A DNA stretch of 64,000 nt from Blasia pusilla (Eukaryota). This document shows positions 1,996 through 64,000 of the stretch, piece by piece (within the stretch, counting starts at the first letter, position 1; every line of letters begins with the position of its first letter). Position numbers and translations under genes: made by a program. The notes under the pieces were generated by a model that searched no databases, was not told the DNA's origin, and was given only the letters and a program-made list of their open reading frames with translations. The DNA lies in NCBI GenBank assembly GCA_050084515.1, contig CM114271.1, forward strand, positions 26,722,001 to 26,786,000, read 5' to 3'.

Positions 1996-3399
1996 GTAGA
2001 TGATGGGCGCAAACCGTAAGGAACGAGTCAAACCTTTCACCCATAGCCCCGTACATCTCAATGGCTAGGGGGATAAATCGATGGCCGTCATGAAGTCGAC
2101 TATAAATATGGGTCTTCTATACCGCCGTCGCCGCCTCCGACGCTCCTTGTAGGAATCTTCCTTGTGCCACCATTTAGGCTCGCAACGCCTCCCGCATAAG
2201 ATCCATCACTACAACATCCGCTACCACCATCTCAGACTCCCGCGTCATGTAGAGATCACCACAGATAAGGAAATCCCGCACGAGGGTAAGAGTCAAAGGT
2301 AAACGTATAAGGTAAGAGGTGGTGCAAAGGAAAGGTGTTGGGGAAAAAAAAAACATGGAAGGTACGAGAAGATATAGAGAATAGAGAATATTGTGTAGTG
2401 AAGAAAATGTAAGAATGTGAGTATATTGTTATGTGGATTGTTTTTACGAGAGTAGAAAATCGGATAGAATACATGGTTCAGCAAAGAGCTTCAAAGAGAA
2501 CTTTGGCTTAGGCATGTGAGCTTTGGGAGATAAATTTGCGGACAAACATATGGAAATGGTTACATATGATTTTGTATGCATGTGGATGGGTAAATAGAAA
2601 GTTATAGTGTATGAGAGAGGGATAGTGTATAGAGGAGTGCTCATTGAGGATAGCACGTAGAAGAAAAAGACAATGTGATGCATTTATCATGGTCCATAGG
2701 CTTAGATATAGGAAGAATTAAAGGAATGTAATGACTAGTAAATGTATTAAGGAATTGTGTTGTACACAAATATATGATATGTTTGTCTTTGTTGTACCAC
2801 AAAGACACAAATGTCATACATTTATGGAATCATTTGTACGAATTGCATACATTGAGATACATTTACGGTTGTCATGTTTTGTACAAAATTTTGCAAAGAA
2901 TGCGGTAAAAGTTGAAGAGTGTATGTTGCGCATAGAAAGGATGTAATGGGCTATAGTAAACTGAATGGAATGTTGCTAATTATATCCCTTATAGTGAATG
3001 AGAATGGAAATATTTGCACAACAAATAATAATAACATTGTTGAAGCAAGAAACATACTTCTGAGGTAGGATAATGCATACATAAGTAAGAGATTGAGTCT
3101 ATTTATATGAAATGTAATTTCAATGGTAATTAACACTTTGGAGATTCATGAGAGAAACAATCGAGAATAAGAATGAGATGTGGAGGAAGTAATGTGACAC
3201 AGAAGAAAATGAAGAACATTAACATTAGATTCAAAAGTGTCCTTAAAATTTGCAAAATTCTGATTGAAGCCGTTAAAATAATAAGAAGTACATAGTAGTG
3301 GTCTTTGGAACATAAATGACAATGTCAAAGTAGTAGTGTTATCAATGATAATAAAGTAGTGTTAGTCTTATCAAATTACCAATATATAGTAGTAAAATT

Positions 3400-6884: not shown

Positions 6885-9784
6885 GTCTTTAAGTCCTTGA
6901 CCACCACGGGGGATGACTTTTTGGTGAGTGTGTAGATGTATCATGCTCGTGTGTGGTGTTGCTCAGAGTAACCCTAAACCCTTTCAACCATAATCTTCAC
7001 ATGTCCCTAAACAATTGGAATGCAACGCTGGAATTTAAAAACATACTTCTAAAAATGTAAGCAAAAAATGTAAGCTAGAATTCAGTATCTAGAATGTAGA
7101 TAGTGAATTCCTCTTGCATCCATACCCCTTACTCCTACCAAAATTTGTAGGATACATCTCCTCAAATTCCATCTGAGGAGAATTCCTGGTTTTGTCACCG
7201 GGTATACTATATCTGAAAAGTTTACAGAATGTCTACTTCATACAGACACATTAAAAATCTGTATGAACATCGCAGCAATCCGAAGTATGTAAATGTGTCA
7301 AGGCCACAAACATAAGAAAACCTACTTCTACCCTCAACCTAACATGGCACACGTGGTCAAGGTCTTGAGGAGCCCCCACTACCTGCCAAACACAAGATGA
7401 CAAAGACTCGAATTGGTTAGTCGTGCCAACGGGGAACAACATACATGCATGAGGAATTCAGGTGTACCATGTAAATACTGCAAATGTAATCACGCTAAAC
7501 TCCGTAAAAAAAATAATTCCAGAAGGAAACAAGGTACCGAGAAATACCCCGGGCTAAATTCAGAAGGGCCATGGAACTCAATACTTTGGACACATCTGAA
7601 ATGTGCTCATTCCCAATAGGTGCTTTGTCATCCACATCAGTCTGATCGATAATGTAGATACTTTTAGGAGTAACTCCGATAACCCAAGGAACATGTTCCT
7701 TCTCCTCAAAGGTGGACACTCTCCTCTTTAACCGGATTGTACAAAAAATCTTGGCAAGCATGTTCTGTTTAGATGCCCCCATCAAATGTTTTATGTCCTT
7801 AATTCGGACAACATTCATCTTAACTCCCTGGTTTTCGACCATTAGAAATTCAGTCAGTTCCTTCTTCTGGAAGTAAGAGTCTAACCATACATGGTCCCCC
7901 ACCAACCGGGCCTTGGGTGAGAATGCAACATTAAATCCAGCATGTAACGGTGCCTGTTCTAGACACTTATAAGTTTCCAACGGAAACCCTAAGACAATCC
8001 ACTCATCCAAATACATTCTGGAGTGAGGATGCAAGCGCTTGCACACAATATCAGCTAAAAAAAAATCTGAACTAGAACTGCTATGTACTATGGGGCTGAC
8101 CCATGTCTAAAGATTGCCCTGGTTCCCTGATAGAAGACCAGTCACGTTTTCAGGTTTTTTAACCTGAATTCCCAACAACCGCAACCCCTTGGCATCTAAA
8201 AACATCGGTTGACCCGACATGGCCCTAATGTGTTTGTCCTTGGTGGTTTTAAACCTACCTCGCCTACTGGCTCAAAAAAGTAACTGTCGATGGCGGACTT
8301 CCAATGTTACTGATGACCTTCAAACCTACACAATACCAAAAACAAGCATAATTCAACAAGCTTCTGAGAACCCTCGAAATAAGAAGAAATTCAAGAAGCA
8401 TCATGTCAAAAAAAAACTGCCCAGAGATGATGTTTCCGACTTGCAAGTAACCTACACAAGTCACAAACAACGATATGGCATTCCTGTACACTAAAGAAGG
8501 GCCATCCTTCCTGTGCATGAGCTAGTATAGGCTAAATGTGATTTATGCTAATCCAAGATGGTCCGAATTGCTAGCAGCTTGTTTCCAGAATTCCTGTGTG
8601 CGTGTGGAGGAACGAATGAGTGATGGATTCGTGGAATGGATCCATCATCTCTCGAGTCTCAATGCTCGAGCATAAGCAAAGCAAAGCGTGTTGATGGATG
8701 GAAGGAAGGAAGGGTAGCATCATTTACCTGCTAGCAAATCAGAATGGCTTTCATGCTAGAATGGTAGGATCATTTATCTGTTAGCACATCAAAATGACAG
8801 ACAAGAATGTCTAGGAAAATTCTGATTGCCTTTATTCTGAGCAGAAGCTTGTAGAATCCCAACACACTCAAACATATCCACAACCCACAATAATCAGGAG
8901 GGATAGCAATTCCAACCAGTGTTGGATTGAAATCAACAAAAGGTAGTAGCTATACCTCGCTTCAGACACAGTTGGATTTAGAGGTCGGACTATATAACTA
9001 AACTTTGAATCAACTGCCCACACGATATATAACCGATCTCACTTAATCCCGATTCACGAACGGCTGTCGCCTCGTCCTTATATCGCTAATAATAATAATG
9101 AATCTTTGACCTCGACCATCTTCAGCCAAATGAAGGTCCTTGAAGTGATTCGCCGTGAGTAAGCGAAACGCCCAAGTTTGAGAAGGAATGAAACGAAGTC
9201 TCTGGCTATGGCTATGGAGAGAACCAACAGTCTGACCTCAAAGATTTCAACTGAGGGAAGGGCGCTGTCATGGCACGATCAAATGTCGAGTAGGTCTGGT
9301 TGTAGAGTCCTGGCCGAGGACCAGACTCGCGAAAGCTGAGACTCACGAAAGCTGAGCGAACAAGACCCGAACAGTTTCACGAACAAGACCCGAAAGCTGA
9401 GCGAATGAGAACGAGAACGAGAACGTGAACGTGAACGAGAGCAAGAATGAGAACAAGAGCAAGAGCGATCGAGAACGAGAAAAGAACAGAGGTGAGCGAA
9501 CGGCGAGCGAACAGCGCCCTAACCCCTCGCGAGAGCCCTAACGCCGTCAAGAACGGACGTCGTCCATCCCTCCCCGTCCTCCCTACCCTCTCGTCCCGTC
9601 CGTCTCTCGAAGGCGTCCGTCGTGACCTCCCATCCTCGGTCGCGACCTCCCCATCCCGGGGCATCCGATCCTAAAACCATCGCCCGACCCAGCTCCAGGT
9701 AGGCCCTACTCTACGCGCATTTAATGCCTTTCCTGGACGAACTATGGACTTCGCAACCGCATAGGATTGTGTGCGAGCCCAGCG

Positions 9785-10137
9785 TGGAGAAATATATTTA
9801 TATATTTATATATTTATATAGAAAAAGGATGGGAAACCCATCACGATACAAAAGAGGGGGCATGGAGACCCAAAAAATAGACCTCAAGAGGCCAGAACCG
9901 GCCCCGAGGAGAAAGAAGGGGGCCTTCCCCCTAACGACCAAAATCACCAACAGCAGAGACAATATCAACAACATCTGGAGAACTATGACTACTACTTAGT
10001 GGGCCTCTAGCATTGGCGTCTCCAACTGCTTGAGCCCGCCAAAGAAGCCCATTTGCCTGGGCGCGCTGCAAAGCTATGGAGACCCGTTGCCTACAATAAA
10101 GTATCGCAGTGGCTAAGGACAACCCATTTCTCGACCA
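9785..10137 (+). repeat. Dispersed direct repeat, copy 2 (homologous to ~1685-1995)
   Basis: Same blocks as copy 1 with roughly one mismatch in four or five bases (estimated by eye). Confidence 0.8.
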
Positions 10138-11204
10138 AGGTGGAAGGAAGGAGGAAGGAGTGAGGTGGAGTGATGGAAGGAAGGTGTGAGTCGCGGGTGG
10201 AGGAGGAAGGGAGAACGGCCGGATAAGGATGCTGGCCAGGCCCCTCCCCCGGGAGGTTTGTCCCGCATAGGAGCACGGGCCAGCCTTCCCAAACCCCGCA
10301 TTTAAAATAGCCTTGGTAGGATGCAACGTAATTAGAGGAGCGGACGTAGTATCCACGAGACGGGGTTAGGATCGGGCCAAGGTAATGCTGGAGTACATGG
10401 TAGGAGCCTTGACGTGGTTGAGCAGCTAAATGGTCACGTTGAACGTGGTTGGGAAGTTGACATGGCAGCAGGGATTTTGGTGGAAGCGGTGTTCGAGCGA
10501 AAGCAGTATTTATGACGCAAGTGTACGTGTCGATGTTGATTGCGAGCGGGATGGGTGATCTGCGTCGAGAGGTTGGGATGGAGTGTTGTGATGGAAACAC
10601 ATGTGTCGATGCCGACGGGTAGTTTGCATCTGTTGACGAGAGGTTTGACGTGTTGGTCGAGGAGAGTGTCGTGTTGCGGAGGTTGCCACACCACATGGAC
10701 GAGTGTGTGTTGACGGTGCAGTAGATTGATCGCGGGCATGTTCAGGTTACCCATTCGAGTCCTTTTTCCCGCACTTATCTTGTGTGATTGAGAGTGTTGG
10801 GTATCGGGTCGTTGTTGGTGTTAGATGGGTGTAGCGATGGTGACGAGTGTAGTCTCCATGCATGTGTAGCATGTTTGTGGATATACGGCGGTTTCTGATT
10901 AGGGGTCGCGTGTATGACCCTAGAGTGTCAGGAGTTTAGGTGAGTTAGTTGGGAGGCTTGAGTGTTGAGTGTGCGTGAGGCCGGGTGTGTCATCATGGGA
11001 TTGGCATTAGCGTAGGTGAGCTAGTGAGGAGTGTGAGAGACTCTTGGTGAGTCTGAGTGCTTGAGCGGGTGAGAGAGGGTTGTCATCACGGCGTTCTTCC
11101 AATGTTCCAAAGAATGGGGTAGTACGAGTAGTGGTAGTGGAGTAACACGGAGTGGTGTGAGGTATTGAGGGGCTTCGAGTAAGGAACCACCCGGACTCCC
11201 ATCC

Positions 11205-14200
11205 ATGGTTGGATCATCATCACTAGATAGCGAGTCTCGTGACGAGATCTCGGAAGGGGACAGTGATGCGTGGAGAGAGATGGACGACATGGGCCACCAA
11301 GGCATGCGTCATTTCTCTGGTGCGGTAGGCACCAAAAATGATTTCATCCAAGAGTTTGACACGTGGCGCGACTTCCAGGAGATACGGACCCCTACGTATA
11401 CGCAGTTCAACCCTTTTATGGCGTGGAAGGGGTTGTTCCAGCACTTGGAGGGTCCGTTGATGGATGACTACATGGAGTTCCGATCTCTATACTCTGTAGA
11501 GATCGATGCTTGGAGGGCATATTGGGCCCCAGGGTATGTGTCTACTATTCATCGCCAAGCGTATGATGGAATAGTAAGGATGGAGAGACCTACACCATCA
11601 GCCCGGGGACTAGATGGAGAGGATGGTAGTGAGAGTAGTGAGGTGGCAGAGACCTCTCGTGGTAGAGGACCACCAAGTTTCAGTCCTACAATGGAGTGCT
11701 TCCGATAGTTGGGGAGGAGCTACCAGGGCGTGCGGATCGACAAGCTGAAGATTCTATAGGATTTTCAATAGAGATCGGGTGAGAGTGTGAGGGAGGCATT
11801 CACACGCATGCAACGATTGATCGTTGCTACATATGGGGTGATTGAGGCGCAGCCAGTGCAGTATTGGTATGGAGTATTGGACGAGGAGCTATTGAGGAGA
11901 GTTTGGGATGCAATGTTGCTTCACACAGCGAAGCCCACATTGAAGGTGGTCTTTGAGTTGTCTGAGCGGGTAGAGCTCAACATGAGTGAGGAGCACGTGG
12001 TGACCACAGGATTTTCGCAGGATTTGACGGGTCGACGAGTAGGAGTAGACCCAAAAATATCCTAATATGCACTAGTACTACGGGAGTAAGCTGGTGGGCC
12101 CAGAGAGCATGGCGGTTTTCGTGAGCCGATTAGGCAACCGCCCGTACAAACATATGTTTCCCAGTAGGGACCCTGGTTGGGTTGTTGGACGTGTGGTGGA
12201 TCACATAGGCAAAGAGACTACCCACAACATGGGAGAGGGCCACGGGCGCCTCCGATTGCTCAGGAGCCATAGAGATTGGCCCCACCATAGTTCTAGTGTG
12301 ATCATTGTTACCAATATGGTCACACTAGGGATAGGTGTTATGAGCTTCGCCGGGAAGTACGCCCAGAGGTAGGCAGAGGACTTGGGGGCGAGAGAGTTGG
12401 TGGAGATTGAGTAGTGGATGATCGTGGTGGTAGAGTGCCATCACCAGTTACCGGAGATGGAGGACGTGCACCCGATGCAGCGCTCCTTATGCGCATCGAT
12501 CAGTTGGAGCAAAGGATTTCTGCCATGGCGATGATGCAGCTACATGCTGGCCTGGAACTGAGAGTAGCTAGTGTGGTGCCAGCCTCCACATCTTACCACG
12601 ATGTTGGTGAGGATTCTGCGGGAAAGGGATTTATGTGTAGTGCGGCTCAGGTTGAGGCTACTGTGGTGGTGACTCCGGGTGATGCAAGAGTAACTAAGCC
12701 ATCGAGAGGTGGGGTTGAGATTGACCCAGAGGAGGGGACCGATGGGCGGCAAGCCAGGGTTCCCCAATCGTTCACGTTGTCGGAGGCACTTCATACACCG
12801 TCGATGGTGTCTCAACAACTAGTAGTGCCCACGTGTGAGGCAGATGCATCGACGTCACGAGGAGTTGGAGATACGACTCCTATGCCGGCTCGGGAGGAGC
12901 TAGTGTTGACCACCTTGTTGGATATGGCCACAAGGTTGAGCCAGGCTCTGTTGTTTTCCGCCATAGAGTTGGCGACGTTGGAGTTGGACCAACGGAAGTG
13001 TTTCGGCTGGCCGCCACATTGTGTTAGCGTGGAGAGGTGACTGCCTCTCGTTCAGAGGTAGTTGAGGAGACGATGGAATTGCCCTCGGAGCAGGTGCTCA
13101 TGACGTCCTCCACTGAGTCATGGCATGCGGCGTCGGAAAAGTTGGTAGATATGCCAGCTAGCCCAACGATAGAGCGAGCCATGATCACACCACATGTGGT
13201 GTTGTTGGATAATCGAGTAGGAGTTTTTCGCTTGGTTAGTCCCACATGTGCAGTGTACCACCAACAGCGTGTCCTACTTGATTCGGGAGTGCAGCCCTTG
13301 ATGTTAGGGAAGATGGCATATTTGGCGTTGGGTCTACACAAAGGCGACACTGAGCATTGTCCCTTTTGCATACATACCTCTATTGGGGGCATATCATCCA
13401 TGCAGTACATGACTCGATAGGAGTTGATGGACGGGTGAGCTATCTACCGGTGTTGTTTGCAGAGAGTAGTGGTGGTCGACACGTGAGGATACGGTGACCA
13501 CGTTGGCAGTATTCACAGGTGGTGTTAGCTGATAAGGAGGGTTCGGGGAGAGGAGCACACATGCGGAGGACATTCCCATAGCGAATAGTCCCACGGAAAG
13601 ATATGTCAGGGTGGGTGTCTCTTCCCATGGTGCAAATTTGCTTTATTGTTGTTGGGGATGAGCATTGAGATGTGTGGAGTGCAGACGAGCTCATGAGGCT
13701 GGGGTAGAGCCGTGTCTATGTTTGGAGCAGGGTACGAGAGTATTAGATCTTTTCGGAGGGATCAACACGGCGGATTGCTATAGTGTTGCAGGGATGGCGA
13801 CATCGAGGGTGATGGATGTGCATAGGATAGTAGATCATGTCAGATACATATGTGTATGCTATCTAGAGTTAGGGGGACCAAACTGCCAATTAGGGGGGCG
13901 ATTGTGGAGTCTCGATGTATATGCATGAGTTTGTTTGGTTTGTATGGATCTACCTGTATGTTGGGGAAGATCGATGTTTTGTGGTGTGTAGATGTGACCA
14001 GCGATGTGGGTTGTATAGCGATGTGTATGCGCACAACAAGTATCACATCTTATTTCGACGTAGGTAGAGTTCTATCACGTCGACGACATAGAGAGTTAGC
14101 GGGTTGTTTGGGTGTAACTTCATCCTGAGATATCGGATGAGGTTGGCGAGAGGTCTGTTGTGTCGGGAACGTCGTTTATGGCAATTCTCTATTTTGGTTT

Positions 14201-14612
14201 TAGTCCGTCAAGTGACCCGTTGACCAAGTCAACGATCACCCGGTAACCTGTGCACGCAGGTTGTCGTTGGAAGGGCTATTTTTGGGGGAAGAGCCTTTTG
14301 GCTCTTCCCAAGGGTATAAGAATGAGGAATATGCTCCCAAGCTATCTTTCTCATATTGAGCCTTAGGAGTGCCTCTCTTGCATAGACGTGTGTGGGTGTG
14401 TAGGATTTAGGGTGCTAGCGTCCGGATTTCCTCATAGCATAGGGTGGATGTGTTTTGATATGGCGATGTAGATTCATGAGTGGAGTTTTAGGTTGGGTGA
14501 GCCATTTTTAGATTCATGAGTGGAGTTTTAGGTTGGGTGAAGATCGATGTTGTGTGGTGTGTAGATGTGATCAACGATGTGGGTTGTCATAGCGATGTGT
14601 ATACGCACAACA
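11205..14612 (+). mobile_element. Degenerate, internally deleted Ty3/gypsy LTR retrotransposon (gag, zinc knuckles, protease, DNMT-motif-I-like stub, 3' LTR)
   Basis: Gag-like fragments (GESVREAFTRMQRLI). Zinc knuckles CWTCGGSHRQRDY (~12183) and CDHCYQYGHTRDRC (~12297). Aspartic protease VLLDSG (~13270). VLDLFGGI at 13740. PPT-like AGGGGGGCG at ~13892. The 3' region is the reverse complement of 61779-62620 and ends ...CACAACA. The 5' boundary is not defined. Confidence 0.8.
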
Positions 14613-17001
14613 TCTTTGTATGTACTTGTTCTCGCGTGCTCAGCGAGCGTAGATGATGAGGATATAAAAAAACTCGAGTGGAGGACTTGTTGGGCAAGTC
14701 CGTGATATGGATCAATACGTCTGTTTTTGTGAAACCTTGCTATGGAGACAGTACACACTTGAGGAGACTTAACCCAATTAGAGCTCGGAAATTTCTTGGC
14801 TACCTATAGAACTAGTAATTGGTTGAATCCTTGGGACTCAACTAGTTGCGAGTTCTATAGGTAGAATGTGTTGCCCTAACTTGCCTAGTTTACTTCTCTA
14901 TTAGATTTCTAAATATTTCAAAAATTCCAAATACTACTATACTTTACTTGGCTTTCACAAAGTATACCCCTATGTATCTAGAGAAGTAATCAATATGGGC
15001 AGCATAGGCAACCCATATGTAGACCAATCAAAATGAAATCTTAGCTTGTTAGGAGTATTAGAGAAAGTACCAAAATTTAGAGTAGGATTGGATCCCTAAG
15101 AAATCCACAAGAAGAGAATTCTATGAACATTATTCTTTATGTTTGGATACCTATGTATAACAAAAAAACCGAAACATATCAATTGTTATGATATATAATA
15201 TTAAGAAGGAAGAACATTTAAATGATTGGATCAATTGGTCTATCCAACTCAAGGATCTGGTTGGAAGAAACACCATGTATTCATGATTCCTTTTAATTCG
15301 GTTTCTTAGCGAATGCTTCGATTCTCTTGACTCAATTTCGTATCAGTTTACGCATGTATGGACTAAATATTCTTTTTTCCTGCAAACATATTAAGCCTTG
15401 CGAATCCAAACCATACTTATATTTTATTTTCCTTTTGGTTGGTTTAAGAAATTCTTCTTGTGGTATGTTAGGTTCAACCAACATTTCACTAAGGATCATG
15501 CTTGAAAATGATTGGATATATGCTATTATTAGTCCATATGGAAAAAATAATAGTCAAATATAGCATTGCAACTTGTACAACATAATATATATATATATAT
15601 ATAGAGCAAGTAGAAACTTGGGGTTGTGACGGTTGAGTAGGTGGTTATATTAGAGCAACCTCCAAACGAATATGGTAAGAATACATCATAATAGAGAACC
15701 AAATAATCCAATCATTTAAATTCATGGATAGGAAAGAATTAATATTTCAATGAGAAGTGCATAGTTATCTGTTCATAATAAATAGATTTCTTGGTTGACC
15801 TTTGTTTGCACCTTCAGGAGATATTCTTAAAAACAAGAAGAAAAAAATGATGCAAATTATGGTGTTAAATAGCACGGACGAAAAGCCGAATACGCGAGTG
15901 CAAGGGCAAGATAAAAAAAAATTTCCAGTGGCCATGCAGGCACGCAAAACACGTAATTTTAACAATGATTTTATAAATATTAATTGAGCATTCATATTTT
16001 AATGGAAAAATGTATTTTTTGCTATTTTCAAGAATGGATTCACTAGTTTTTCAAGAGTCTTCTTAAGGTAAAGATTTGCAGATTTCAAATCTTTTTCATG
16101 ATAGCTAAATATAAATGTACTACTTAAGGTTCTAATGTGGAATTTGGGATGCAAAGATGTGACCGTAATTCATTTCAATAGTGGGAGTATAGCCCTTTTT
16201 TTACATGTGTTGCACAAATATGCAAGTTATATACACATAACTCAAATGGTTAAAAAAATTCTTAACCATCTTCTCAGATTTACTCTCAAAATCGTAACAT
16301 ATGCCACATCCATTGCGAATATATTTATGATTAAAAGATCATCCTAGAATTTTCCAACTCTAAATTTAATATCCTTCCATGACTAAAGAGGATATCAACT
16401 CTAAATTTAATATCCTAATGCTAAAGAGAATATTTTCTAGAAACAGCTAATGCATTTAATGTCCTCAAATTTCATTGTTGTGACCACTTTATCATCACAT
16501 TGCCTTTGGAACATGGGAGTTGAACCATTATAATTGTAATTGCTTCATTGTAATGGCATATATAGTTGCAAAGTATCATTATCCACCATGGATTTTGAAC
16601 TAACATTGATAGTGATAATAATCTTATGACGCAACAACTATGAGACAAAGCAAGTGGAATATGATGTCATTTGGTGTGCACATGCGTAACATGCACTAAC
16701 ATCTAAAGCATAGTAGGTACATACACCATCACATCAAAAGGTTATAGAATCAACCTACCACAAGCGATTTTCCTATTACAATTGTCTTCAATTTCCAGAT
16801 GATAAGGTAATTCCAATTTCAAAAGCATAACCTTTAAATTAAAGGAAGATCACTCCTTCCTTACTAAATTCTTAAATGTGTACACATATCAACAAGCATC
16901 CATTTTAAAAACATAATGACTTCCTCATCAACATGTCGATATACATATGATTTTAAGTGCTTTCTTCCATACTAATATCAACATACTCACCAAAATTTTG
17001 G

Positions 17002-24342: not shown

Positions 24343-27262
24343 ATGAGGGCGCTCGGAGTATGGCTGATCGTGGTTGGACTGGTGCGTCTGTCCTCTGTAT
24401 GGTTCGGATTCTTTGACATTTGGGCGCTGCGTATGGCCGTGTTCTCGAAAACGACCAGTAAGTGCTCGCCTCGCTCTCGTTGCTGTGAGAGTCAAACCTA
24501 TGAGAATGCTGCATTGGAGGACGAGAGTGAGGAGAATGGTATGAATGTGGGCTCAATCCAAGTGACTGGGAATATGGAACTCTCCCTCTCCATACATTTG
24601 GCTGACGTGCTAAGAAGTTCATTTCGCTTGCTTTAACAGCCAGCATTGACAGGCAAGATCCTCCATGATACGACGATTCTAGTGGTCGTGCCCCTTTCCT
24701 TGGGCTAAGTTTTTAGGTGGTTGAATTACTGCTCCACATTGTCAATATTGCGATTGACCCAATTGATTGTCACCCTCCGGCGACTCTAAACACCTATCCC
24801 TATGCGTACTAAGTTTATGAGCTTGAGAGTTGCTCCAACAGTCAGCATTGGCAGGCGGGATCCGCCAGGAAATGACGATTCTCGTGTTAGTGTTCCTTTT
24901 CTTGCGCTAAGCGTTTTTAGGTGTTTAAGCTGTCAAAATGGAGTTACTTCCCCACATTGTCAATCTTGTGATGACCGAATCGATTTGGTCACCCTCTTTT
25001 GACTCTCCACAGCTATCCCTGTGCGTACTGTGATTACGAGCTTCAGAGTTGCTTCCACAGTGAGCTTTGGAAGGCGTGATCCCCCCGGGAATGACGATTC
25101 TAGTGGTGCTTTTCCTTTCCTTGGGCTAAGCTATCAAAATGGAGTCGCTTCCCTACATTGTCAATATTATGATTGACCGAACTGCTTTTGTCACCCTCTT
25201 TCGACTCTCTACAGCTATCCCTATGCGCACTGTGATCACTAGCTTGAGTGTTGCATCAACAATCAGCATTTGCAGGCGGGATCTCCTTGGAAATGACGAT
25301 TGCAGTGCTAATGTTCCTTTCTTTGGGTCAAAAGCTCAGATGAAGTTCCTTCCTCACAGATCTCCTGTCATTGTGGTCGACAGAATTGATTTTGTTACAT
25401 GTGTTGGGTCGTAAAGGTTGCAACTAATCGACAGGTATCCACACGCTTACTGCTTATCTATTTCTTCCCTTGCGAGCGTACGCATAATATCAACTCGTCA
25501 ACTATCGGTTACAGCTTTTCTTATGCTGGAACAACCTTTCCTCGACATGTGAACATTCCTCTTTCTCTGACTTCGTCTATAGAGACCCTCCAGATGTACG
25601 AGTAGTAGGGGCATGGCCTATTCAGGATCTATTCATTGAGCAGTCTGGAGATTTAGCACTCTTTTTCCCAGATTTCCTCACGAGTCTATACCAAAACGAT
25701 GTTAACCAATAGTTATCATGCACATTTTATTTGCAGAACACTTGTGTATATGTGGGCGAAGATACGTGTATGTCAGATGTAAGGCAAACAAACTGTTTGT
25801 ACAACTAACCAAATCATTCAGGAGCCCTAAAGGGAGGACAACTCCACACGGTTGCTGGTATAGCTGGAATCTTTCTTCTTTTCTTCCCTGGATTTTTGTA
25901 AGAATGAATTTGACTTCTGTAGGGTTTTATTTTCATCCAGCTCTCCTCTCTGGCAGATACATGCGTCTTCCTGTGTCTGACTTCCGATCAGACAATCTTT
26001 TATTGTTCTTTTATAATTCAAGAACACATGCATAATATTTCCCTGCTAAGCGAGTCTTGAAGCGGCCAGCTATCGTCACTCAGACTGGTGATTATAATTC
26101 TAACTCCAACATACCTGCTAAAATCATGGGTACCTTATTACTGTCAATCGCGTGATGAAGAGCATCCTGGAAGAAACACCGTTTATTTCCCTTGTTCAAT
26201 GGCAAACGGGCTGGAGTTCATTCAGCTATGAAGGAGGGAATTCCCCTCTGGGGAAGCACATGGTATTGAACTCATGAAAGTGCAAGGATCTTGCTCTAGC
26301 TCAGCCACAATGGACTATCTTGTATAGTCTGGGAGAGAGGTGGGTACGAACTAAAACAGGATGCCAGCCAGACCTGCATGAAAATACGCATCACTCTGCG
26401 GATGGATGCCCACAGATGACTGGTACTCTGAGAGAGAGTATGCTGAAGTGTATGACCTTAATGAATGTTGGCTGTTCTCCCAAGTTCAAGGTTGGAATTC
26501 GGGGGTTTTTTGTAAACAAAAGGAAAATATCCATTCATGCAGTGTACCAGTTCACATGCTAAGAAAGTAGAAATTTGCTTGTTAAGGTGTTTATGGATAC
26601 AACTCCAGGGTGCGCACGGGGCTGAGGGGGGCTAATATAAGCCAGTCAGCTTCCCACAGGCTAGAAAATATTTCTTTCTGTCAAGCTCTTATTAAAAATC
26701 CCAAGTTTTTGGTCTGGGTCTTAACATTGCACCCCTCATGATATTTATTTCAGGTTTTATGTAATTTCTGGTGTGGAATAACCATGTTTGTGGGCATCTA
26801 CAGTGACAGAAATACACGGGAGGACATTTGGAACGTGGACCCTTCTCACTTGTACTCTGTGCATTATTTGTGCCAACAACCTGGAAAACAAGCCTTTATA
26901 CTTGGCCACATTGCTCTCATTTGTGTATGCCGTTGGACACTTCGCTATGGAAGTTTTCATCTACAAGACCATGGCTCTGAAAAATCTAGCCACCGTGGGG
27001 TTATTTGCAGGTGCCTGGTCAACTTCATCTTCTTTGCCTTTTGCACTCTGAATATCTTCTGAGATCATTTAGTAGCATCAGCAAGGGTGAAAAAATATTC
27101 CTTGGATGAGAGATGTTAGTCACAATTTCGAATCATTGCTGAAATGTCATTCAATGGAGGTGAGCTGATGACAGTTTCGGCTGTGACACAGGGCCATCAA
27201 TTGTCTGGATGCTCTTAGAGTGGAGAAAGTTCAACGAAGTGAAGGCTGCGAAGCAAGTTTGA
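24343..27262 (+). CDS. ERG28: Ergosterol biosynthetic protein 28 (sterol C4-demethylation scaffold), 130 aa; exons 24343-24457, 26804-27010, 27192-27262
   Basis: MRALGVWLIVVGLVRLSSVWFGFFDIWALRMAVFSKTT-M-TEIHGRTFGTWTLLTCTLC...LENKPLYLATLLSFVYAVGHF...AGPSIVWMLLEW matches plant ERG28. GT-AG introns, phases consistent. Confidence 0.95.
24642..25400 (+). repeat. ~210-bp diverged tandem repeat, ~3.5-4 units, in ERG28 intron 1
   Basis: Block GCATTGGCAGGCGGGATC...GACGATT...CCTTT.CTTGGGCTAAG recurs at ~24642, 24846, 25064 and 25266. CACATTGTCAAT...TGACC...GTCACCCTC...CTATCCCT recurs in between. Confidence 0.85.
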
Positions 27263-29295: not shown

Positions 29296-30348
29296 TAAAA
29301 GAACAAGATATCTCCAAATCCATTTTAAGTTTTAAATTTTTTTAAATAAATTCGAAATTCTAATTTTAAAACAGTCAAACCATATCCTCTCCCTCTTCTC
29401 GACCCTAAACTTGGAAACCTCCAAACCCGAGCGTAAGTTGGCGGTCACCGCCATTTCCACGCGAGACTCGGCGACCGTTACTCCCTCCGTCGTTTTCCAT
29501 GAACTCCGTCCCTCACTTCCAATCGTACTCTCGCACACACCGCCACCGCGTCACCGCATCGGTGCTCGACCTATTTCTTGCCCTCCATCGCTCTCGTCTT
29601 CTCTTCCGATTCGTCCCCTTTCCACGACACCGAAGCGGATTGTGCGGGCGCAGTGGGAGAGGAGCACAGAAGAATGCGCGCAGTTTGAATCCGGGCACCG
29701 CACGTTGCGGGATTGGAGGTCAATAGAACAGTGGCAGGAACCGATCGGCGCAGGAGTGAGTTGCGAGCTGTACGCTAAGTCTCTCCAGCTCCCGGGACGC
29801 GCGTGGATTGGCCGTGGACACGGTGGTTTGGGAAGGGAGGAAGAGGGATCGAAATGGAGCCGTGCGAGTTCATTTCTGTGTTGCTAGGATTAGTATTGGT
29901 GTGCGAGTATGGCTGCTCGGGGATGTTGTCCGTTCCCTGTGCGCATGTCGTCCTGCGCTTGGCAGTTTGGTCATGGCAGTTTCTGAACTTCCTCGTTCTA
30001 TCGGCGGGCGGTCGTTGCGCGATTGAATTGGGGGCGTGATCAGTGAGTCAAAGAAAGACTCGCTCAGTGTGCGTGTTGGTTGAGTCGTTTGAATAAAATG
30101 CATCCAGTTTGAGTAGAGTGGATCGTGATCATCCCTGAAATCAGGAGTGGTTTCCGAGTTCGACAAGAAGCTTGTGCGGTTGGTTGCGCCATGAGAGGCA
30201 CCAATCATGGCTTGCGAACAACCTGAAGTTGAAGAAGACTGATCAGCACCGATGATAAGCAATCGCCCTCGGCAGTGTGTCCACGAGTCTTTTGTTTCAG
30301 TGGCGGAAGTCGGAGAAGCAGGGAGCTCTGCTGATTCTCACAACCCTT

Positions 30349-33300
30349 ATGGAAGGTAAAGGGGGAGGGGGAGGTGGTGGCGAGGATAGCCGTGGCCACA
30401 GGCATGGTCAGGCCGAGAGAGGCAACGGAGAGAGGACGTCTAAGACTCCTTCACATCGAGAGGTGAATCGTACTTACGAAGAAATACATTTGAGCGGGAA
30501 GGTTAGTCGAGAGAAGACTCCAACCATGGGAAGAGACGGTGATAAAACTCCTAACTTTGATCAACGAAGGGCACCCGCCTCACCGGCTGGCAAAGCTGTT
30601 AGCAGTGTGGAGAAATACATTCACAAGCGCATCCGCAGTGTGGAAAGGGGCGACAGAATCCGTAAACGGGAAAGTGGAAAGAGAAAGCATGACGCTGACG
30701 AGGATAACATATGTTCCACATCATTAGTTAACCAGTGTGGTAGTGGATCCAATAGTGTAGCCATCAGCAGACAAAGCTTGCAAACCGCATCGAGCTACTA
30801 TGGGAGCATTAAGCATGTGCCTACCAATGCTCCAACTCGAAAGTCTACCGAATTACAAAACCGCAACAAGCAGCAGCAGGGGAAAGTTTGCGATGAAAAG
30901 AGCACCGAAGACACCGTGTGTTCAATTTTTAGAGGACGATGGAATGATCACGTAGCTCCTGGAATCAAGCTTGATAATGTTTCTGCATCAACATCATCTG
31001 TTGTGCAACGATTTGTTCACGCTCAGACTAAAGCTCTGGAAGGTTTTAGTGATATCAGCAACGCAGAAGACACGGCGGAAGTATCCACGGAGTTCAAACC
31101 CAAAGTGAAAGACTTCACACAGCGAAAACCAATCGCAGCCGTCCTTGCATTTCAACGATGGCGCCACACTCAACTTAAGGTACAAAGTGCAGCACCCTAA
31201 ACTTCACTCCCCAACAATTTACGAGATCAACCAGCACACCTCATTTCATGGTGAAACGGCCCACAGGTTCTGGAAAACCTGGGTTCTTTAGGAAGCCTAA
31301 GCTCCAGGAGAAGTTGTTGATCAACTCGAATCCATCTTCTGTCATTAACAAATGTCGATATCCCCAACTCCCCAGCGTTCGTGTTACCGTCCAGTAAAGC
31401 GTATTTGAAGAGTAACTCATGGTATTTGAAGGTCTCCGCTCAAGATGTGCTGCAAAATACATTTGAACCAGGTAGTGTAGCAACAACATCGCAGATATGG
31501 CAGTCGTACCTCCAATCCATCACGGCGATGATCATCTGACCTTTTGTGTCTCCGCCATGTCCGAAGATCCAAGATCTCTGGTTTCCCAAACGTCGAGACT
31601 CTGAATTGTAAACTAGTGCAGATTCATTCGAGAGGTGTGTCAGTGACTCAAAAGTAAGTTGAGTAAGACTGAACTGAGGGTTATAAATATTGTTCAGAAA
31701 CTGTTCAGCATGGAGTTGAAGAAGGTGCTTGAGGAGTCAAAGCAAGACGAGGCCTGCTTGGTAAAACTGGAGCAAGAGCTTGGAACAAAGGACAAGCTCA
31801 TAGCCCAGCTTCGCTCTCAACTAGCATCTCATGAAAGATTAGCTTGTGAGCAGATGAGGCACAAACAAACGACAGATGACAAAGTAGGTTGCCTCCTGCC
31901 CAAAACTCGTCAGCTTAACGGGTACGACTTTAGTAACAAACAATTTAATACTCTGCAATTTCACGGTCAAGAGTTTGTCTCCGACGATCGCAAATCCAGC
32001 AGCTCAAGCTCTAAGACGCTAATCCAGCAGCTTTTGTAATTGTAATCTTAAATCGTGAAGACGGATTGCAACTCTGCAAGAGCGAGAGCAAGTAACCCTT
32101 GGAGCTGAGCAACTTTTCTCTTTCTTTAGGGTGATGAATGTCATGTTGAGCGTAAAGCTCTCTTCATCAAAAACTTCCATTTTATGATAAGTGAAGGTGA
32201 AGCAGCTCGAGAAGGAATTACTGAAGACGTTGGAGAGAGCAGCCTCCGTCGAAGGAGATCTGCATACGCGAGACTCTGAAATTCGGCGATTGAAGGACCG
32301 TTTAACATCCTTAGAGAAGGAGGGAGTGAGAATTGACTCAGAGCTACAGACCAGTTTTACAGCTTTGCAGAATGACAAGGAGAGCGCTCTTAATGAAGGC
32401 CGAGTTCTTCTCGCCCAGGTTTGACATGGCTTCCAGAATCATACGTCAGAAAATTGATAGATTCTAGTAGCAGCTTTTACTTTGGAAAAGATGTGAGTAA
32501 TAGGCTCCCTGCGAGGACCTTACTTCTGTCTTCTTCACATGCATCATTCCACTGTGGAATTAAGAGAAGTAGAAAATCCCGTATCTAAATCGTGATGCCA
32601 TCTGAAGCTATTGTCTCCGCCAGTAAAATAAAAGTCTCTCCGACTACGAACGTATCAATCGGGAGAGAATGTGTGAGCAATTCGCGTCTAAGCAGGTTTT
32701 CCAAACTCTCAACTTCTTCTGTACTCTCCAGCTTGCAAGAAGGGATGAAGAAGTGGCTGCCCAGTGTAGGGAGATTGGAAAGCTGCGTGCAACACTCGTT
32801 AAACTGACAGAGCGGCAGACAAGCCAGCAAAAGGAAATGGCGAACACAAGAGCAGATCACAAGACTCATTTGCGCCATCTCCAAGAGAAGCTGCGGCAGG
32901 CATCCGATGCTGTGCGTGCGAAAGAGGTACTACTGGTGGCGGCCTCCACTTCTGAGAACACTAAGATCTGCCCGTGGACAGTAGTGTTTCACTTCCGGTC
33001 CTTCCGAGCCCGCATCCAGATTCGATATTAGTCAAGGAAAGTCACAGTCATTCCATAATCGGTTCACTCCATCTCAACTCTGTCTCACAAGCTCCAAGAG
33101 ATACAAGCCCATCGACATAGACGTATGTAGGCTGGATGGGATTGGCTGGGAGTAGGAAGTACAAGAAGGCTTGTTATTCCACGGTCACGATGAACACACG
33201 TAAATCGAAAAGGAGGCGGTCCAGACAAGGAGAAGGAATCCAAATGAACAAAATTGAAAGGTTACGGTAAAATACCAGAAAAAACACAGGTGACTGCAGG

Positions 33301-36300: not shown

Positions 36301-37369
36301 CAATAATTTGGCTCAGGCTTTGACTGAAGTGCATGAACGATTGTGTGGCACAGAAAATCAGTTGAGAACCAGTGCAAGGCTAAGTACAACACAAACACCT
36401 AAGTTGGGGATCAATGACAGGACAGCAAGAAGCACCACAAGGCACCCAGAAGCACAAGATGAAAGGGAAGGCGGTCAAGGATCAATGACAAGGCAGACGT
36501 TGACCACTGGTCAGATGTTGACCACTGGTCAGACATCCTTTGGTCAAAGAATCCCTCGTTATGCCTTACCAATTGGAAGGGCAACCCGATTCAACTCCTC
36601 AAACTCCCTACAGCAAAGAGAGGTCAGGCCTCTCTCATCCACATACATCACTCCTCATACCCAAGATGATCAATCCCTTCAGGGGAACATCGGTGGTAAA
36701 TATCTACCATCTCAAGAAGGAAGAGACTACAGCAATGGTCATCAGCCCCTATCCTCAGCTACTAGTCGAATTACAAAATCCATAGCCATCAGTAGTGACG
36801 GAAATATCTGCACGCCATCATCCAAGGCCACTGATTGCTCTCATACCACTGTAGTCCAAATTCTCAACCAAGACAACAATAAGATTGGAGAGGTAGCCAT
36901 ACACACTCACCCTCTCAGTGGTGGCAGGGATGTACCTGATTACACTCTGAGATCCGAATCCTGCAGTGGAAGGGATGAGAAGAGGGGTGAAAAGGGGGAC
37001 AGAAGCAAAGGTGAGAAACTAGAAACACAGCAGGAGAACAAGAAAACCGACTTGAAGCCTTCTTTCCAAGCTCACACCATTTCTACAGTGGATGAAAAGC
37101 CCAGTGTTAGGCCTACCACACCAGCTCCTCACCACCAGCCTATTGTAAAAAAAAACAACGCAGTAGATAGAGTAGACACCACACGTTTACTATCCTCATT
37201 AAAGAGGAAGAGTTGCATTGGCTCCGAGTACGCAGCACTTTTGAAATCTGAGATTCTCCGCTTAAGAGAGGGACGATTGCTTATTGAGGACAAGTTGCTG
37301 CAAGCTGGCTGTGACGTAGAGAAAGAGTGGCCTCTGATAAAGAAACCAAGCTGGAAAAGTCATTACTGA
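30349..37369 (+). CDS. Uncharacterised large coiled-coil protein, ~1341 aa; exons 30349-31179, 31698-31883, 32197-32418, 32732-32926, 33675-33791, 34596-35840, 35972-36040, 36209-37369
   Basis: All exon lengths are multiples of 3 with GT-AG boundaries. The central exons are heptad-like and E/K/L/Q-rich; the termini are low-complexity. The exon-3 acceptor is weak, and missed micro-exons are possible. Confidence 0.75.
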
Positions 37370-52279: not shown

Positions 52280-52372
52280 AAGAAGAAGAAGAAGAAGGAG
52301 AAGAAGAAGGAGAAGGAGAAGAGAACTCCACGAGTTCTGGTGCGTTGCATTCGTTTGTATGCACTGCACGTT

Positions 52373-52416
<44 letters not shown>

Positions 52417-61100: not shown

Positions 61101-61778
61101 CAAATGGAGTTTCTTATGGCAACCCTCTACCCACTCCTACTGAGCATTACCATCTTGGCAAGGACCACACATGATTAGATATAGTTGGAAATTTTCCCAT
61201 ATTGTATATAGTTACCATCTATGTAATAATGTTGATGGATGTCCTTCACACTTCATATAATTAGAAGGAAGAAGCCCTCTTCACCATTTCCCTCCATTTA
61301 AAATAGGAATCTAATGCACCAACACGGGGGAACAAAGTAGGTTAGTCATTCTCATCACTATGATTTCCCATGAATATCCTACTAAGCAAAAGACTTAAAG
61401 TATGGTATGAGGGCCCGTATTAAACTGTTTGACTATATATTGGCTATCCCATGCTTCCACCATCACATCACATTCCATGTAACACTCTTTTGAACTACTA
61501 ACCATGTTGACAAGCCCACACCTCTGAATAACATTATGAATATTCTTATGTATCCAAACTCAAAGTCACATCTCTTAGCTTCATGTTTGAGTGACGTGTT
61601 GCCTAATATAAGATTAATGCGTACTCACACTATCTTGTGACTACTCTATTCATTGCTGAGTTTTTGGCATGGTGAGGCCAACATGAACTCTAGCACATAG
61701 CCGACCATTTCTTGGATGAGGCTTTAAATATCATCTCAAGTCACCCTCAAAAGTTATACCTGTATCTTTTATAATTTT

Positions 61779-64000
61779 CGTGTGCATACATATCGCTACA
61801 CAACATACATCGCTGGTCACATCTACACCACATAACATTGATCTTCCCCACACACAGGTCGATCCACACATGTACAAAAATCAACTAATACATATACATG
61901 GAGATCACACAACAAAAATAAAGAGTAGTAAAAATGGCACACCCGGCCTAAAACTCCACTCCTCAATCTACATCGACATATCGAGCCTCGTCCACCATGT
62001 GCTATCAAGGAATCCGGACGCTAGCACCCTAGTCCTATCTCACACACATACAAGAAAGGTGCTCCAACGTCCCAACATGAGAAAGATGGCTTAGGAAATC
62101 CATCTTCCTCTCTTATATAGGGTTGGGAAGAGCCAAAAGGCTTTTCCCCTAAAAATAGCCCTCCCCTTGGTAACTTGCGCGCACAAGTTACCAAGGGCAA
62201 GTGACCTGGTCAACAAGTCACCCGGTTGTGAAAGACCTCAACATGAAAGTTTTCCGAAATGACGTTCCTTACACAATAGACCTATCCTCAACCTCATCCG
62301 ACACCGTGGGACAAAGTTACACTCAAGATAGTCCACTGGCTCCTACGCCCTATCCACGATAGATCTCGGCCTATCGGCTACTCATATGTGACAGCTGTCG
62401 TGCGCATACATATCGCTACACAACATATATCGTTGGTCATATCTACACCACACAACACCGATCTTTCCGACACACGGGTCAATCCACACATGTACAAAAA
62501 TCAACTCATACATATACATGGAGATCACGCAACCGCCCCCCTAGCTGGCACTTGGATCCCCCCAACTCCAGATAGAAAATATCACATCCCTCTCTTACAT
62601 GATCTACTACCCTATACACATCTCGGACACATCCATCGTCCCGTGGGAACCACATCAAGAGGGGGGGTCAGATATGACATATGCCACCCTCGAGAACAAC
62701 CATCACATACCAACATGGTGGCTGCATCCCTTGCAGATCCGCACAACATACACCTCAAGCCTCTGCGGTACCACTATCAAGCTCGGATCCACCATCCCAT
62801 CTACGTTCGGAAGATGACATGGCGCTCAATTCCGCACATGATCCTTCCAAACCATACCATCCCGTCCCATCCCTGACGCCAAGGATTCCTGCCGACTAAA
62901 GCGATAACCCATAGCCAACCATGGCAATTGTAGGTCCTACTCCCTCAATTGTCCCCGTTGCAAGCCATGCTTGCGCAATCCTCTCTTCACCGTCTGTACC
63001 ACTCTCTCCGCCAACCCATCCGCCTCAGGATGATCTCAGGACGTGGTGTGGTGATCTATCAGCGCCTGATCACACAAGGCATGAAACTCTCCCCTGAACT
63101 CGGTACCCTGGTCAGTCAACACCTCCGTCGGTGCACCAAAGTGACTAAGCACACAATCTAGAAACGCATAAGCTGTTCCCTCGCTCGCCCTGTCTGGAAG
63201 TGCCACCAACTCTATCCACTTGGAGAAATGCTCCACCATAACCAACACATACCTATGATGACGCCCCGTCAATGGCAAAGGTCCCGCAAAGTCTAAACTC
63301 CACCGATAACCTAAACCCGTAATCGGCAAAGGATGTAACTGCGGAGTGGGAGCATTGAAGGATGCTCGCACTCTATCACATACCATACATCTAGCCACAA
63401 ACTGCTGTACCCCACTATGCATGTCGCGCCTCCAAGAGTGAACTGGAGTAAGTTGTAAGTACGCTTTACTCCAAAATGTTCCAACTCCTCATGGGCATGT
63501 CGCACTACACTTGCTCGCTGGGAAGGATGAGGTACCACTCGTATCCTATCATCTCCCCATACCCGCAAAATATAAGTCCCCTCCCACCTGAACCTCCTGG
63601 CTCTCTGAAGGATCCGATCCCGCTCTCTAGCACTCAATGTACTCACTATGACGCCAGTGCGCAAGAACTCCACAACCTCCACGTCGTCATGGATATCACG
63701 ATCACGTGTCGCCTCCTCACTAACCTCCGGATCCAAAGACTCATCATCCAACCCCACCACTGGAGTCGTCACCTGTGGCTGACCTGCCATAGTCAACCAA
63801 CAAAGTTAGGCAGATGCATGCCAATCAGGCATCGTCTCCTCATCACTCTCTCCGTGCCATCGAGCTCCTGTGTCGTCTCTCAGACTCGGACATGGGTTAC
63901 GACTCAACCCATCCGCATCCTGGTTCAGCCGACCTGGCCTATGAACCACCTCAAAGTCATACTCCTATAGTAATAGAGCTCACCTGGCAAGCTTTCTCGT
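61779..64000 (-). mobile_element. Degenerate Ty3/gypsy LTR retrotransposon (integrase, PHD finger, 3' LTR); runs off the window end
   Basis: Integrase zinc-binding HEELEHFG...CMVCDR. Core WSLDFAGPLP...VEHFSKW...LTDQGTEF...DGLAERVVQTVK. PHD finger at 62752-62612. PPT-like AGGGGGGCGG. The LTR region is homologous to 13900-14612. Confidence 0.9.

Follow-up and report, generated by a model that had tools for sequence, protein, structure and literature searches.

Remnant of a DNMT3-type methyltransferase in a decayed Ty3/gypsy element points to Gypsy-DNMT3 retrotransposons in land plants

Retrotransposons that write methylation reverse the usual picture of a host methylating its transposons, and in print they come from dinoflagellates and one charophyte alga. 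The initial annotation of the DNA studied here had mentioned both occurrences. In the sections of PMC5890265 consulted, SymbioDIRS-Dnmt3 and SymbioLINE-Dnmt of Symbiodinium are retrotransposons with a C5 DNA methyltransferase (DNMT) in the coding region and are treated as independent acquisitions, while KnitGypsy-Dnmt3 of Klebsormidium nitens is a Gypsy-type LTR element whose pol polyprotein includes a DNMT3-type domain in non-rearranged form. SymbioDIRS-Dnmt3 is DNMT3-type and showed de novo CG methylation in yeast; the Klebsormidium element DNMT was inconclusive in the yeast assay. The legend of Fig. 4c in the same paper gives the repeats of KnitGypsy-Dnmt3 as 'the same as that of a DIRS retrotransposon', with the layout A-coding-B-A-B. 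Chromoviruses are described as Ty3/gypsy elements with a chromodomain after the integrase (portions consulted of 10.1101/2021.11.30.470311 and 10.64898/2026.05.21.726589). The latter source, in the same portions, describes the EpiLTRs of Cymbomonas and Euglena as LTR elements with a DNA methyltransferase and a chromatin reader and separates them from 'streptophytes (Gypsy-DNMT3)'.

Inspection of the window (the whole 64-kb stretch of DNA that was analysed) reveals two incomplete copies of a Ty3/gypsy family, with the pol domains divided between them (Table 1). Half of the protease (PR) lies in copy 1, the RNase H (RH) end, Integrase_H2C2 and rve lie in copy 2, and relatives from elsewhere hold the full set. 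P0072 (Marchantia Mp_4g09160, 1278 aa) is colinear with the gag-PR part of the window at 43-48% identity, and P0001 (Calypogeia fissa) is the best protease relative; a phmmer search with ORF 13028-13417 gave 68 relatives at E<=1e-3. The two copies have a terminal block in common, and what had been called an 'LTR' is in both a B-A-B repeat block. Within copy 1, gag is interrupted by several frame breaks and stops. The protease carries the LLDSG reported by the initial annotation (13274-13288, plus strand) but has also lost its C-terminal half, of which about 60 codons are probably missing between 13417 and 13426 because the linker relic that follows is colinear with the relatives. Searches by tblastn with P0072, P0092 and others found no further pol pieces on the same strand near copy 1, be it the rest of the DNMT, RT, RNase H, integrase or PHD, in line with the earlier claim that the RT is deleted. 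Upstream of gag (8500-11300) no 5' repeat was found, with only a 25-nt match at E 0.29, so the outline of copy 1 is incomplete. At the other end, related-contig depth drops to about 0 past 14607. Copy 1 is an old dead derivative, its gag and protease full of frame breaks, in which a single internal deletion of roughly 4 kb brings the 3' terminal repeats up against the first helix of the DNMT domain. Two sequencing runs guessed to be RNA contain next to none of the copy 1 words, which has no bearing on expression.

Table 1. Positions of the element features in the window
Feature	Positions	Strand	Basis
Copy 1 gag region, decayed CCHC knuckles	11280..13004	+	tblastn with P0072 residues 1-546, 43% identity, E 2.6e-102; ORFs
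Copy 1 aspartic protease, N-terminal half	12974..13417	+	tblastn with P0072 537-684, 48%; P0001 6-153, 46%, E 1e-37
Copy 1 post-protease linker relic DGRVSYLPVLF	13426..13458	+	weak tblastn to P0001 216-226 and P0072 747-757, E ~0.01 (450-nt sub-search only)
DNMT3-type motif I relic (AdoMet-binding loop and start of next helix)	13710..13794	+	tblastn, family profile, by-eye alignment to P0001, P0072 and others
Frame breaks of motif I relic	13770-71 and 13777	+	reading of sequence
Copy 1 internal-deletion junction	13795..13814	+	likeness to copy 2 begins at 13815
Copy 1 3' terminal repeat block	13815..14612	+	73% identity to reverse complement of 61929-62622
Copy 1 repeat layout	lead ~140 nt; B 13957-14038; A ~14039-14528; B 14529-14612	+	B/B 92% over 84 nt
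Copy 2 3' terminal repeat block, B-A-B	61778..62622	-	B at 62533-62398 and 61913-61778; B/B 90% over 136 nt
Copy 2 pol end, cut by window end	62612..63964	-	Pfam and tblastn
Copy 2 PHD finger, end of pol	62612-62773	-	PF00628, 42.2 bits (cut-off 24 bits)
Copy 2 integrase zinc finger and core	63036-63805	-	Pfam, zinc finger by Integrase_H2C2 at 21 bits (under its 25.5 cut-off), core by rve at 55.9 bits
Copy 2 RNase H end	63806-63964	-	tblastn

Copy 2 is truncated by the 64000 boundary before the DNMT region, and its 5' end falls beyond the window. Residues 1788-2344 of P0092 match it by tblastn at 31-57% identity, with RNase H directly continuous with integrase, and its stop codon lies 8 nt within the terminal block. 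The PHD finger ahead of that block bears out the histone reader that had been placed at the pol end. A host gene near the elements is closest to liverwort genes, which makes the host a bryophyte and most likely a liverwort, as fits the land plant that had been proposed.

Downstream of the copy 1 protease, the open frame 13662-13928 (plus strand) translates to ...CLEQGTRVLDLFGGINTADCYSV... and contains the LDLFGG-type motif I that the initial annotation had placed within 13718-13795. The motif reads EQGTRVLDLFGGINT at 13725-13769, with the LFGGI of motif I (F-x-G-x-G) at 13749-13763. A one-base shift had been proposed to lead on to G(L)AIVLQG; two frame breaks are needed. After ACG (T, 13767-69) stand two surplus bases at 13770-71, followed by GGA TTG, which encodes GL at 13772-77. 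AIVLQG then occupies 13777-13794 in the frame starting at 13771, base 13777 being common to AIVLQG and the preceding L codon. About 25 codons of the DNMT remain in copy 1, which shows motif I only, motifs IV (PCQ) and VI (ENV) being deleted; because the PCQ cysteine and ENV are gone, the locus cannot methylate anything.

A relic this short invites the reading that it is a chance F-x-G-x-G-like word in decayed non-coding DNA between protease and terminal repeat. Several results lean that way: Pfam assigned ORF 13662-13928 to 0 families with E allowed to rise to 1, below the PF00145 cut-off (22 bits); the family-profile match is weak when taken alone (E 0.16 over 16 residues); and the 51-residue piece, used in a word-indexed protein search, brought up 16 candidates among longer proteins, none of which scored. 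We nevertheless hold chance to be very improbable, since the segment matches the specific words of its closest relative. In tblastn with P0001, 13710-13769 is the second colinear match, identical at 14 of 20 residues with E 9e-5 against the whole window (2.4e-7 against 13380-13830 alone), on the correct strand and, relative to the protease, where colinearity would put it. The Calypogeia DNMT begins PEQGIRLLDLFGGINTGLVAVLQAG, near-identical to the window words, and 'GGINT' is common to the window relic and P0001 only, among the motif-I proteins aligned. Scored with a profile built on the DNMT region of the relatives, the ORF with motif I comes first among the window's six-frame ORFs of at least 15 aa, and GL and AIVLQG continue as in the relatives. 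Contigs of DNA runs X1-X4 (organism A) span the relic, nearly all with G at 13742 and C at 13751; these commonest differences are silent third-codon changes in the relic frame. On sequence comparison, the LDLFGG segment is a genuine DNMT relic and a chance motif is rejected.

Less probable still is that the 150 nt ahead of the copy 1 terminal repeat are a worn C-terminal PHD finger, whose likeness to motif I is accidental. LRCVEC (13665-13682) does recall LRCMLC of copy 2, an L-R-C-x-x-C start about equally far from the repeat, and in a MAFFT alignment the stretches ahead of the two repeats show scattered matches. True homologues should, however, align easily here because the adjoining terminal block is 73% identical. 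Sensitive blastn of 13400-13830 against the copy 2 internal region gave no significant match, and the global alignment has z = 1.6, a value reached by 118 of 2000 shuffles and by real-sequence controls in 5 of 102 and 5 of 44 cases. With blastn null and the alignment near shuffle level, the PHD reading was rejected; for the DNMT reading, P0001 supplies a match that is both specific and significant. Equally hard to credit is a piece of a host gene (DNMT3 or DRM), captured or adjacent and not belonging to the element. Land plants own DNMT3 and DRM genes (PMC12344493, in the part consulted), but the words match the element-borne domain of the liverwort relatives, colinear after PR, and the segment has the protease of the element on one side and its terminal repeats on the other. 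The copy 1 stretch is moreover covered by related contig pieces in the thousands (runs X1-X4), as expected for a repeat. The segment is, with high confidence, the last remnant of a DNMT3-type C5 methyltransferase between PR and RT of a Ty3/gypsy polyprotein family.

The relatives provide what copy 1 has lost. In P0072 the protease is followed by motif I, from which GWPCQG is 88 and ILENV 132 residues away, and P0001 has motif I at the colinear place. This spacing (motif I, PCQ at +88, ENV at about +132) is seen in 5 of 6 long proteins named as Marchantia and in most of those without a name. Pfam scans covered 16 of the 68 protease relatives, and both proteins above 1000 aa, the only two of that length, have PF00145 downstream of PR. 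A search with the P0062 DNMT region gave 49 proteins at E<=1e-5: 32 have PF00145, 20 have the PHD family PF00628 and 6 are named Marchantia polymorpha. Bit scores for PF00145 (cut-off 22) are 45.5 in P0062, 42.5 in P0097, 35.6 in P0072, 34.4 in P0044 and 32.5 in P0092. PF00145 and the PCQ and ENV motifs, which the initial annotation had put forward as a check, are thus present in gag-PR-matching relatives from other genomes, though the window ORF has no Pfam match at E<=1. P0092 and P0097 are single ORFs in the order gag-PR-DNMT-RT-RH-INT. A PHD finger is present in P0092 (PF00628, 42.7 bits, 2300-2344), where the proposed order gag-PR-DNMT-RT-RH-INT-PHD is found whole; P0097 has the same order, with no PF00628 in the Pfam scan.

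Metagenome loci (L001-L041) were consistent with this order. A DNMT was seen in 40 of the 41, with PR upstream of it in 26, PHD downstream in 10, and RT at most 3 kb downstream in 27 and closely upstream in none; RT was found in 22 of the 25 loci with room for one. One tblastn segment spans PR through DNMT to RT and beyond in L002 and L010. Loci L042-L080, with 23-36% identity and E values of 1e-6 to 2e-8, were excluded from these counts as probable unrelated DNMTs. Intact members of the family have the order gag(CCHC)-PR-DNMT-RT-RNase H-integrase-PHD, with terminal repeats laid out as A...B-A-B, and the interpretation given in the initial annotation is supported on relatives from other genomes. 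A second layout, RT-RH-DNMT-G-patch-INT, stands beside PR-DNMT-RT among the relatives, which would mean that the DNMT module changed its position in pol or was acquired on two occasions. Relatives also occur in a Coleochaete transcriptome. In the ESM Atlas, the cluster nearest to the Marchantia DNMT region is labelled 'Eukaryota, commonest Streptophyta' and has PF00145, followed by phage clusters, with nothing firm among them.

In the intact family, the DNMT would be made within pol and may methylate cytosines in freshly made cDNA or near the insertion site. On the integrase, the C-terminal PHD finger may read the state of the histone H3 tail and steer integration, by analogy with chromodomains. 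Judged from the sequences, the Gypsy-DNMT3 kind of retrotransposon known from Klebsormidium (2018) is also present in land plants. What is new is the host range, the principle having been described in Klebsormidium nitens (PMC5890265, sections consulted). 'Marchantia' and 'liverwort' have 0 occurrences in the main text of that paper, and the portions consulted of 10.1101/363937, PMC11982613 and PMC6453930 hold nothing relevant to land-plant Gypsy-DNMT3. A literature search of open-access main texts, the Marchantia gene ids included, found no report of Gypsy-DNMT3 in a land plant. A further proposal, which we advance as rather doubtful, is that an abundant, possibly active Gypsy lineage with its own de novo DNMT and PHD reader persists in liverworts, and hence in land plants, inherited from streptophyte algae and present in two layouts. 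On that proposal, the elements might methylate copies of themselves or host DNA next to them. The window locus is a fossil whose value is as a pointer to the family. In Marchantia, a genetic model for which methylome data exist, the effect of a transposon-borne DNMT on element and host is testable.

Compared with solved structures, the Marchantia DNMT is nearest to DNMT3A/3B/3C (E 1.7e-8; e.g. 8te4, 6w89, 2qrv), followed by M.HaeIII (E 1e-3) and 4onj, titled only 'DNA methyltransferase' (E 2.6e-3). The likeness to DNMT3A/3B/3C comprises motif I, where LLDLFGGISTGLAAVLQSG aligns to VLSLFDGIATGLLVLKDLG, and then PC and ENV. Unlike these cellular enzymes, the Marchantia element domain has no PWWP or ADD and is embedded in a retroelement polyprotein; its catalytic loop reads PCQ in place of the PCN of cellular DNMT3, and sequence similarity is low. 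SymbioDIRS and SymbioLINE, as described in the sections consulted, differ from the window family in backbone (DIRS with tyrosine recombinase; LINE) and host lineage. EpiLTRs, in the portion consulted, have a Dam-type adenine methylase, a DNMT4-like DNMT and a chromodomain, with the DNMT at the pol 3' end. Chromoviruses likewise place a histone-reader module C-terminal to integrase and offer a model for the role that the PHD may play, but the reader in the window family is a PHD finger (PF00628) rather than a chromodomain and its targeting role is putative. With KnitGypsy-Dnmt3 the family has in common a streptophyte host, a DNMT3-type domain in pol and DIRS-like repeats, seen as the 3' B-A-B of both window copies and as the whole A-coding-B-A-B layout in L028 and L036. 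This likeness is one of domains and of the layout described in the sections consulted, and the protein searches returned no named Klebsormidium sequence among the relatives. The family differs from KnitGypsy-Dnmt3 in its liverwort-like bryophyte host, with named relatives in Marchantia and Calypogeia, and the window copy is only a relic; together, the window and the Marchantia and Calypogeia proteins extend the Gypsy-DNMT3 lineage, here equipped with a PHD reader, to bryophytes.

Inspection of copy 1, the decayed Ty3/gypsy element, reveals gag, half a protease, a linker and ~25 codons resembling a C5 cytosine methyltransferase domain (DNMT, PF00145), with the 3' terminal block directly after them. 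Deletion has removed RT, RNase H, integrase and PHD, and the locus is dead and can do nothing. In tblastn, Marchantia polymorpha Mp_4g09160 (P0072, 1278 aa) matches copy 1 with residues 1-546 at 43% identity (E 2.6e-102) and with residues 537-684 at 48%. Since the protease ORF ends at 13417 and the linker relic follows, ~60 codons of the C-terminal half of the protease are missing. Translation of the window shows that the open frame at 13662-13928 (+) contains ...CLEQGTRVLDLFGGINTADCYSV..., and the T codon of EQGTRVLDLFGGINT is followed by two extra bases (13770-71). Past these lies GGA TTG (G L, 13772-77), while AIVLQG occupies 13777-13794 in the frame starting at 13771, with base 13777 common to the L codon. 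The initial annotation had read LDLFGG-type words and G(L)AIVLQG separated by a single one-base shift; the words are present, but two small frame breaks take the place of the single shift.

Features of copies 1 and 2, of related proteins (P-numbers) and a metagenome locus (L-number), and of the host gene
Feature	Position	Strand	Remarks
Copy 1, decayed gag-protease	11280-13417	+	tblastn
Copy 1, LLDSG protease signature	13274-13288	+	
Copy 1, DGRVSYLPVLF	13426-13458	+	short relic; weak match to post-protease linker of relatives
Copy 1, EQGTRVLDLFGGINT	13725-13769	+	frame open over 13662-13928
Copy 1, repeat B	13957-14038 and 14529-14612	+	84-nt piece, 92% identity
Copy 2, end of RNase H		-	
Copy 2, integrase zinc finger and core		-	rve 55.9 bits; Integrase_H2C2 21 bits, under its cut-off
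Copy 2, PHD finger		-	PF00628, 42.2 bits
Copy 2, repeat B	62533-62398 and 61913-61778	-	90% identity
L028, piece A	1676-2017 = 10350-10691		
L028, repeat B	10238-10350 = 10693-10805		
P0092	PR 663-711, DNMT 953-1137, RT 1443-1596, RNase H 1660-1789, integrase 1925-2090, PHD 2300-2344		
P0097			order as P0092, without PHD match
P0096, P0106, P0110			RT-RH-DNMT-INT-PHD; G-patch between DNMT and INT in P0106
P0095, P0099			RT-RH...INT-PHD; no PF00145 at E<=1e-3
P0072, P0077			PF00145 alone
ARIADNE/ARI8-like RBR E3 ubiquitin ligase gene	52771-54384	+	intronless, 538 aa; Pfam IBR, Ariadne, UBA_ARI1

A phmmer search with the protease ORF (13028-13417) against a database of 1.84 billion representatives returned 68 proteins at E<=1e-3, 19 of them at E<=1e-10. 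The top relative is P0001, a 345-aa protein of the liverwort Calypogeia fissa in which protease and linker are followed by ...PEQGIRLLDLFGGINTGLVAVLQAGIKVHQYLYVE.... When P0001 is compared with the whole window by tblastn, the first match is the protease (E 1e-37) and the second, colinear match falls at 13710-13769, where 14 of 20 residues are identical (E 9e-5, or 2.4e-7 on a 450-nt sub-search). The same order, protease then motif I (the AdoMet-binding loop), is seen in P0039, which derives from an assembled transcriptome of Coleochaete scutata. A Pfam scan took in 16 of the 68 relatives; the sole two longer than 1000 aa, P0044 and P0062, carry PF00145 downstream of the protease with PCQG and ENV past motif I, so that the domain and the motifs IV (PCQ) and VI (ENV) anticipated after the protease are present in relatives. 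With a profile of the relatives' DNMT regions, ORF 13662-13925 ranks first among the window's six-frame ORFs of at least 15 aa, by a weak match (E 0.16 over 16 residues). Pfam assigns no family at E<=1 to ORF 13662-13928, and a word-indexed search with a 51-residue piece gave no match. A relic this short cannot carry the case by itself; what gives it weight is its specific wording, its strand and its colinear position after the protease. On this evidence the proposed motif-I-like segment holds up as a true remnant of a DNMT3-type methyltransferase carried by the element.

The DNMT3 assignment draws on P0072, whose top phmmer matches among all solved structures are DNMT3A, 3B and 3C (E 1.7e-8 and weaker), followed by M.HaeIII (1e-3) and 4onj, titled just "DNA methyltransferase" (2.6e-3). 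Its motif I region aligns with the DNMT3A words VLSLFDGIATGLLVLKDLG. Motifs I, IV and VI follow one another in that order, so the domain lacks the rearrangement seen in DRM.

Residues 1290-1690 of P0062, its DNMT region, match 49 proteins at E<=1e-5 among 6251 candidates; six of the 49 have Marchantia polymorpha as named source. Precomputed Pfam lists place PF00145 in 32 and PHD (PF00628) in 20 of the 49, with RVT_1, RT_RNaseH, Integrase_H2C2 and rve in many; our own Pfam scan covered nine. DNMT lies between protease and RT in P0092 and P0097, which contrasts with P0096, P0106 and P0110, where it lies between RNase H and integrase. Given this second layout, DNMT may have shifted within pol or may have been captured twice. 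The P0110 cluster has 10 members, each of 2487 aa and each with one contig.

Metagenomes scanned with eight aligned gag-PR-DNMT proteins yielded 80 loci, of which L001-L041 were analyzed and L042-L080, weak matches at 23-36% identity, were excluded. By tblastn with P0092, DNMT is found in 40 of the 41 loci, the protease at most 2.5 kb upstream of it in 26, RT at most 3 kb downstream in 27 and PHD downstream in 10, with RT closely upstream of DNMT in none of the 41. RT is present in 22 of the 25 loci having at least 2.2 kb of contig past the DNMT start (exceptions L012, L022 and L035). In L012 (10073-12415), DNMT is directly followed by PHD, and RT, RNase H and integrase are missing; this locus is an internal-deletion derivative comparable to copy 1. 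Copy 2 matches P0092 residues 1788-2344 in tblastn, with RNase H passing directly into integrase, a join that fits the PR-DNMT-RT layout and not RT-RH-DNMT-INT. The family order put forward in the initial annotation, gag-PR-DNMT-RT-RH-INT-PHD, is thus borne out by P0092, P0097 (PHD not matched), loci L001-L041 and copy 2.

From 13815 on, copy 1 shares 73% identity with the reverse complement of 61929-62622, the 3' end of copy 2 on the minus strand, and the stop codon of the copy 2 PHD finger lies 8 nt within this common block. The block is not a plain LTR; the short repeat B stands on either side of piece A, with ~480 nt between the B repeats in both copies. Piece A was sought upstream of the copy 1 gag, and none was found there. 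The relatives L028 and L036 present the complete layout, with piece A ahead of the coding region and a 3' end of B-A-B.

Small shares of the stretch's words occur in four DNA sequencing runs, X1-X4, of one coded organism (two studies). From X1, 2368 contig pieces fall on 12900-14700 at 80% likeness, 102 of them at >=99%, and the element family is therefore very abundant in that organism. The motif-I segment is covered, with a mean word depth in X1 of 242 over 13693-13753. At 13742 and 13751, nearly all covering contigs carry G and C, respectively; each change falls on a third codon position of the EQGTRVLDLFGGINT frame and is silent. All contigs that cover 13812 and 13814 carry the letters of copy 2 at the corresponding positions, where the PHD finger of copy 2 ends, and these short contigs thereby suggest that no other copy shares the deletion junction of copy 1. 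Across X1-X4, thousands of short contigs match 12900-14607 at 80-99% likeness, the family being a major repeat there, and contig depth peaks within the terminal block, at 13998-14058.

The ARI8-like gene shares 83% identity with a protein of Calypogeia fissa, 81% with Marchantia polymorpha and 80% with Physcomitrium patens; the window's host is therefore a bryophyte, and most probably a liverwort, in agreement with the land-plant host claimed initially. The protein encoded by the gene equals the Marchantia "ariadne-1" protein in length. The plus strand at 30259-37366 contains three long open frames (313, 425 and 397 aa) separated by shorter ones of 130 and 134 aa. They match no Pfam family at E<=0.01; coiled-coil-like in look, they are probably exons of one host gene. 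Repeats comprise a tandem array at 24628-25327 (period ~200 nt, 75% between units), a dispersed 300-nt repeat at 1691-1994 and 9807-10135 (73%; one copy just upstream of the copy 1 gag) and a simple trinucleotide-type run at 52025-52505 that translates as poly-L, poly-R or poly-S.

A literature search, with subscription papers and supplements outside its scope, found no report of such elements in land plants, and the words Marchantia and liverwort are absent from the main text of PMC5890265. A passage of a preprint (10.64898/2026.05.21.726589) names "streptophytes (Gypsy-DNMT3)", PMC12344493 cites the 2018 paper for streptophytes, and fusion of PHD and chromodomains to retrotransposons is known in general (10.1101/2021.11.30.470311). 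According to PMC5890265, the charophyte Klebsormidium nitens has an LTR Gypsy element whose pol ORF includes DNMT3 domains; key residues are conserved, purifying selection is reported, and a yeast activity assay was inconclusive. Such elements are thus known from an alga, and the window's element is a further example, of moderate interest for the extension to liverworts and the PHD partner. The A-coding-B-A-B layout of L028 and L036 equals the DIRS-like layout of KnitGypsy-Dnmt3 (PMC5890265, Fig. 4c legend), and copies 1 and 2 have the same 3' B-A-B ending as the Klebsormidium Gypsy-DNMT3 described there.
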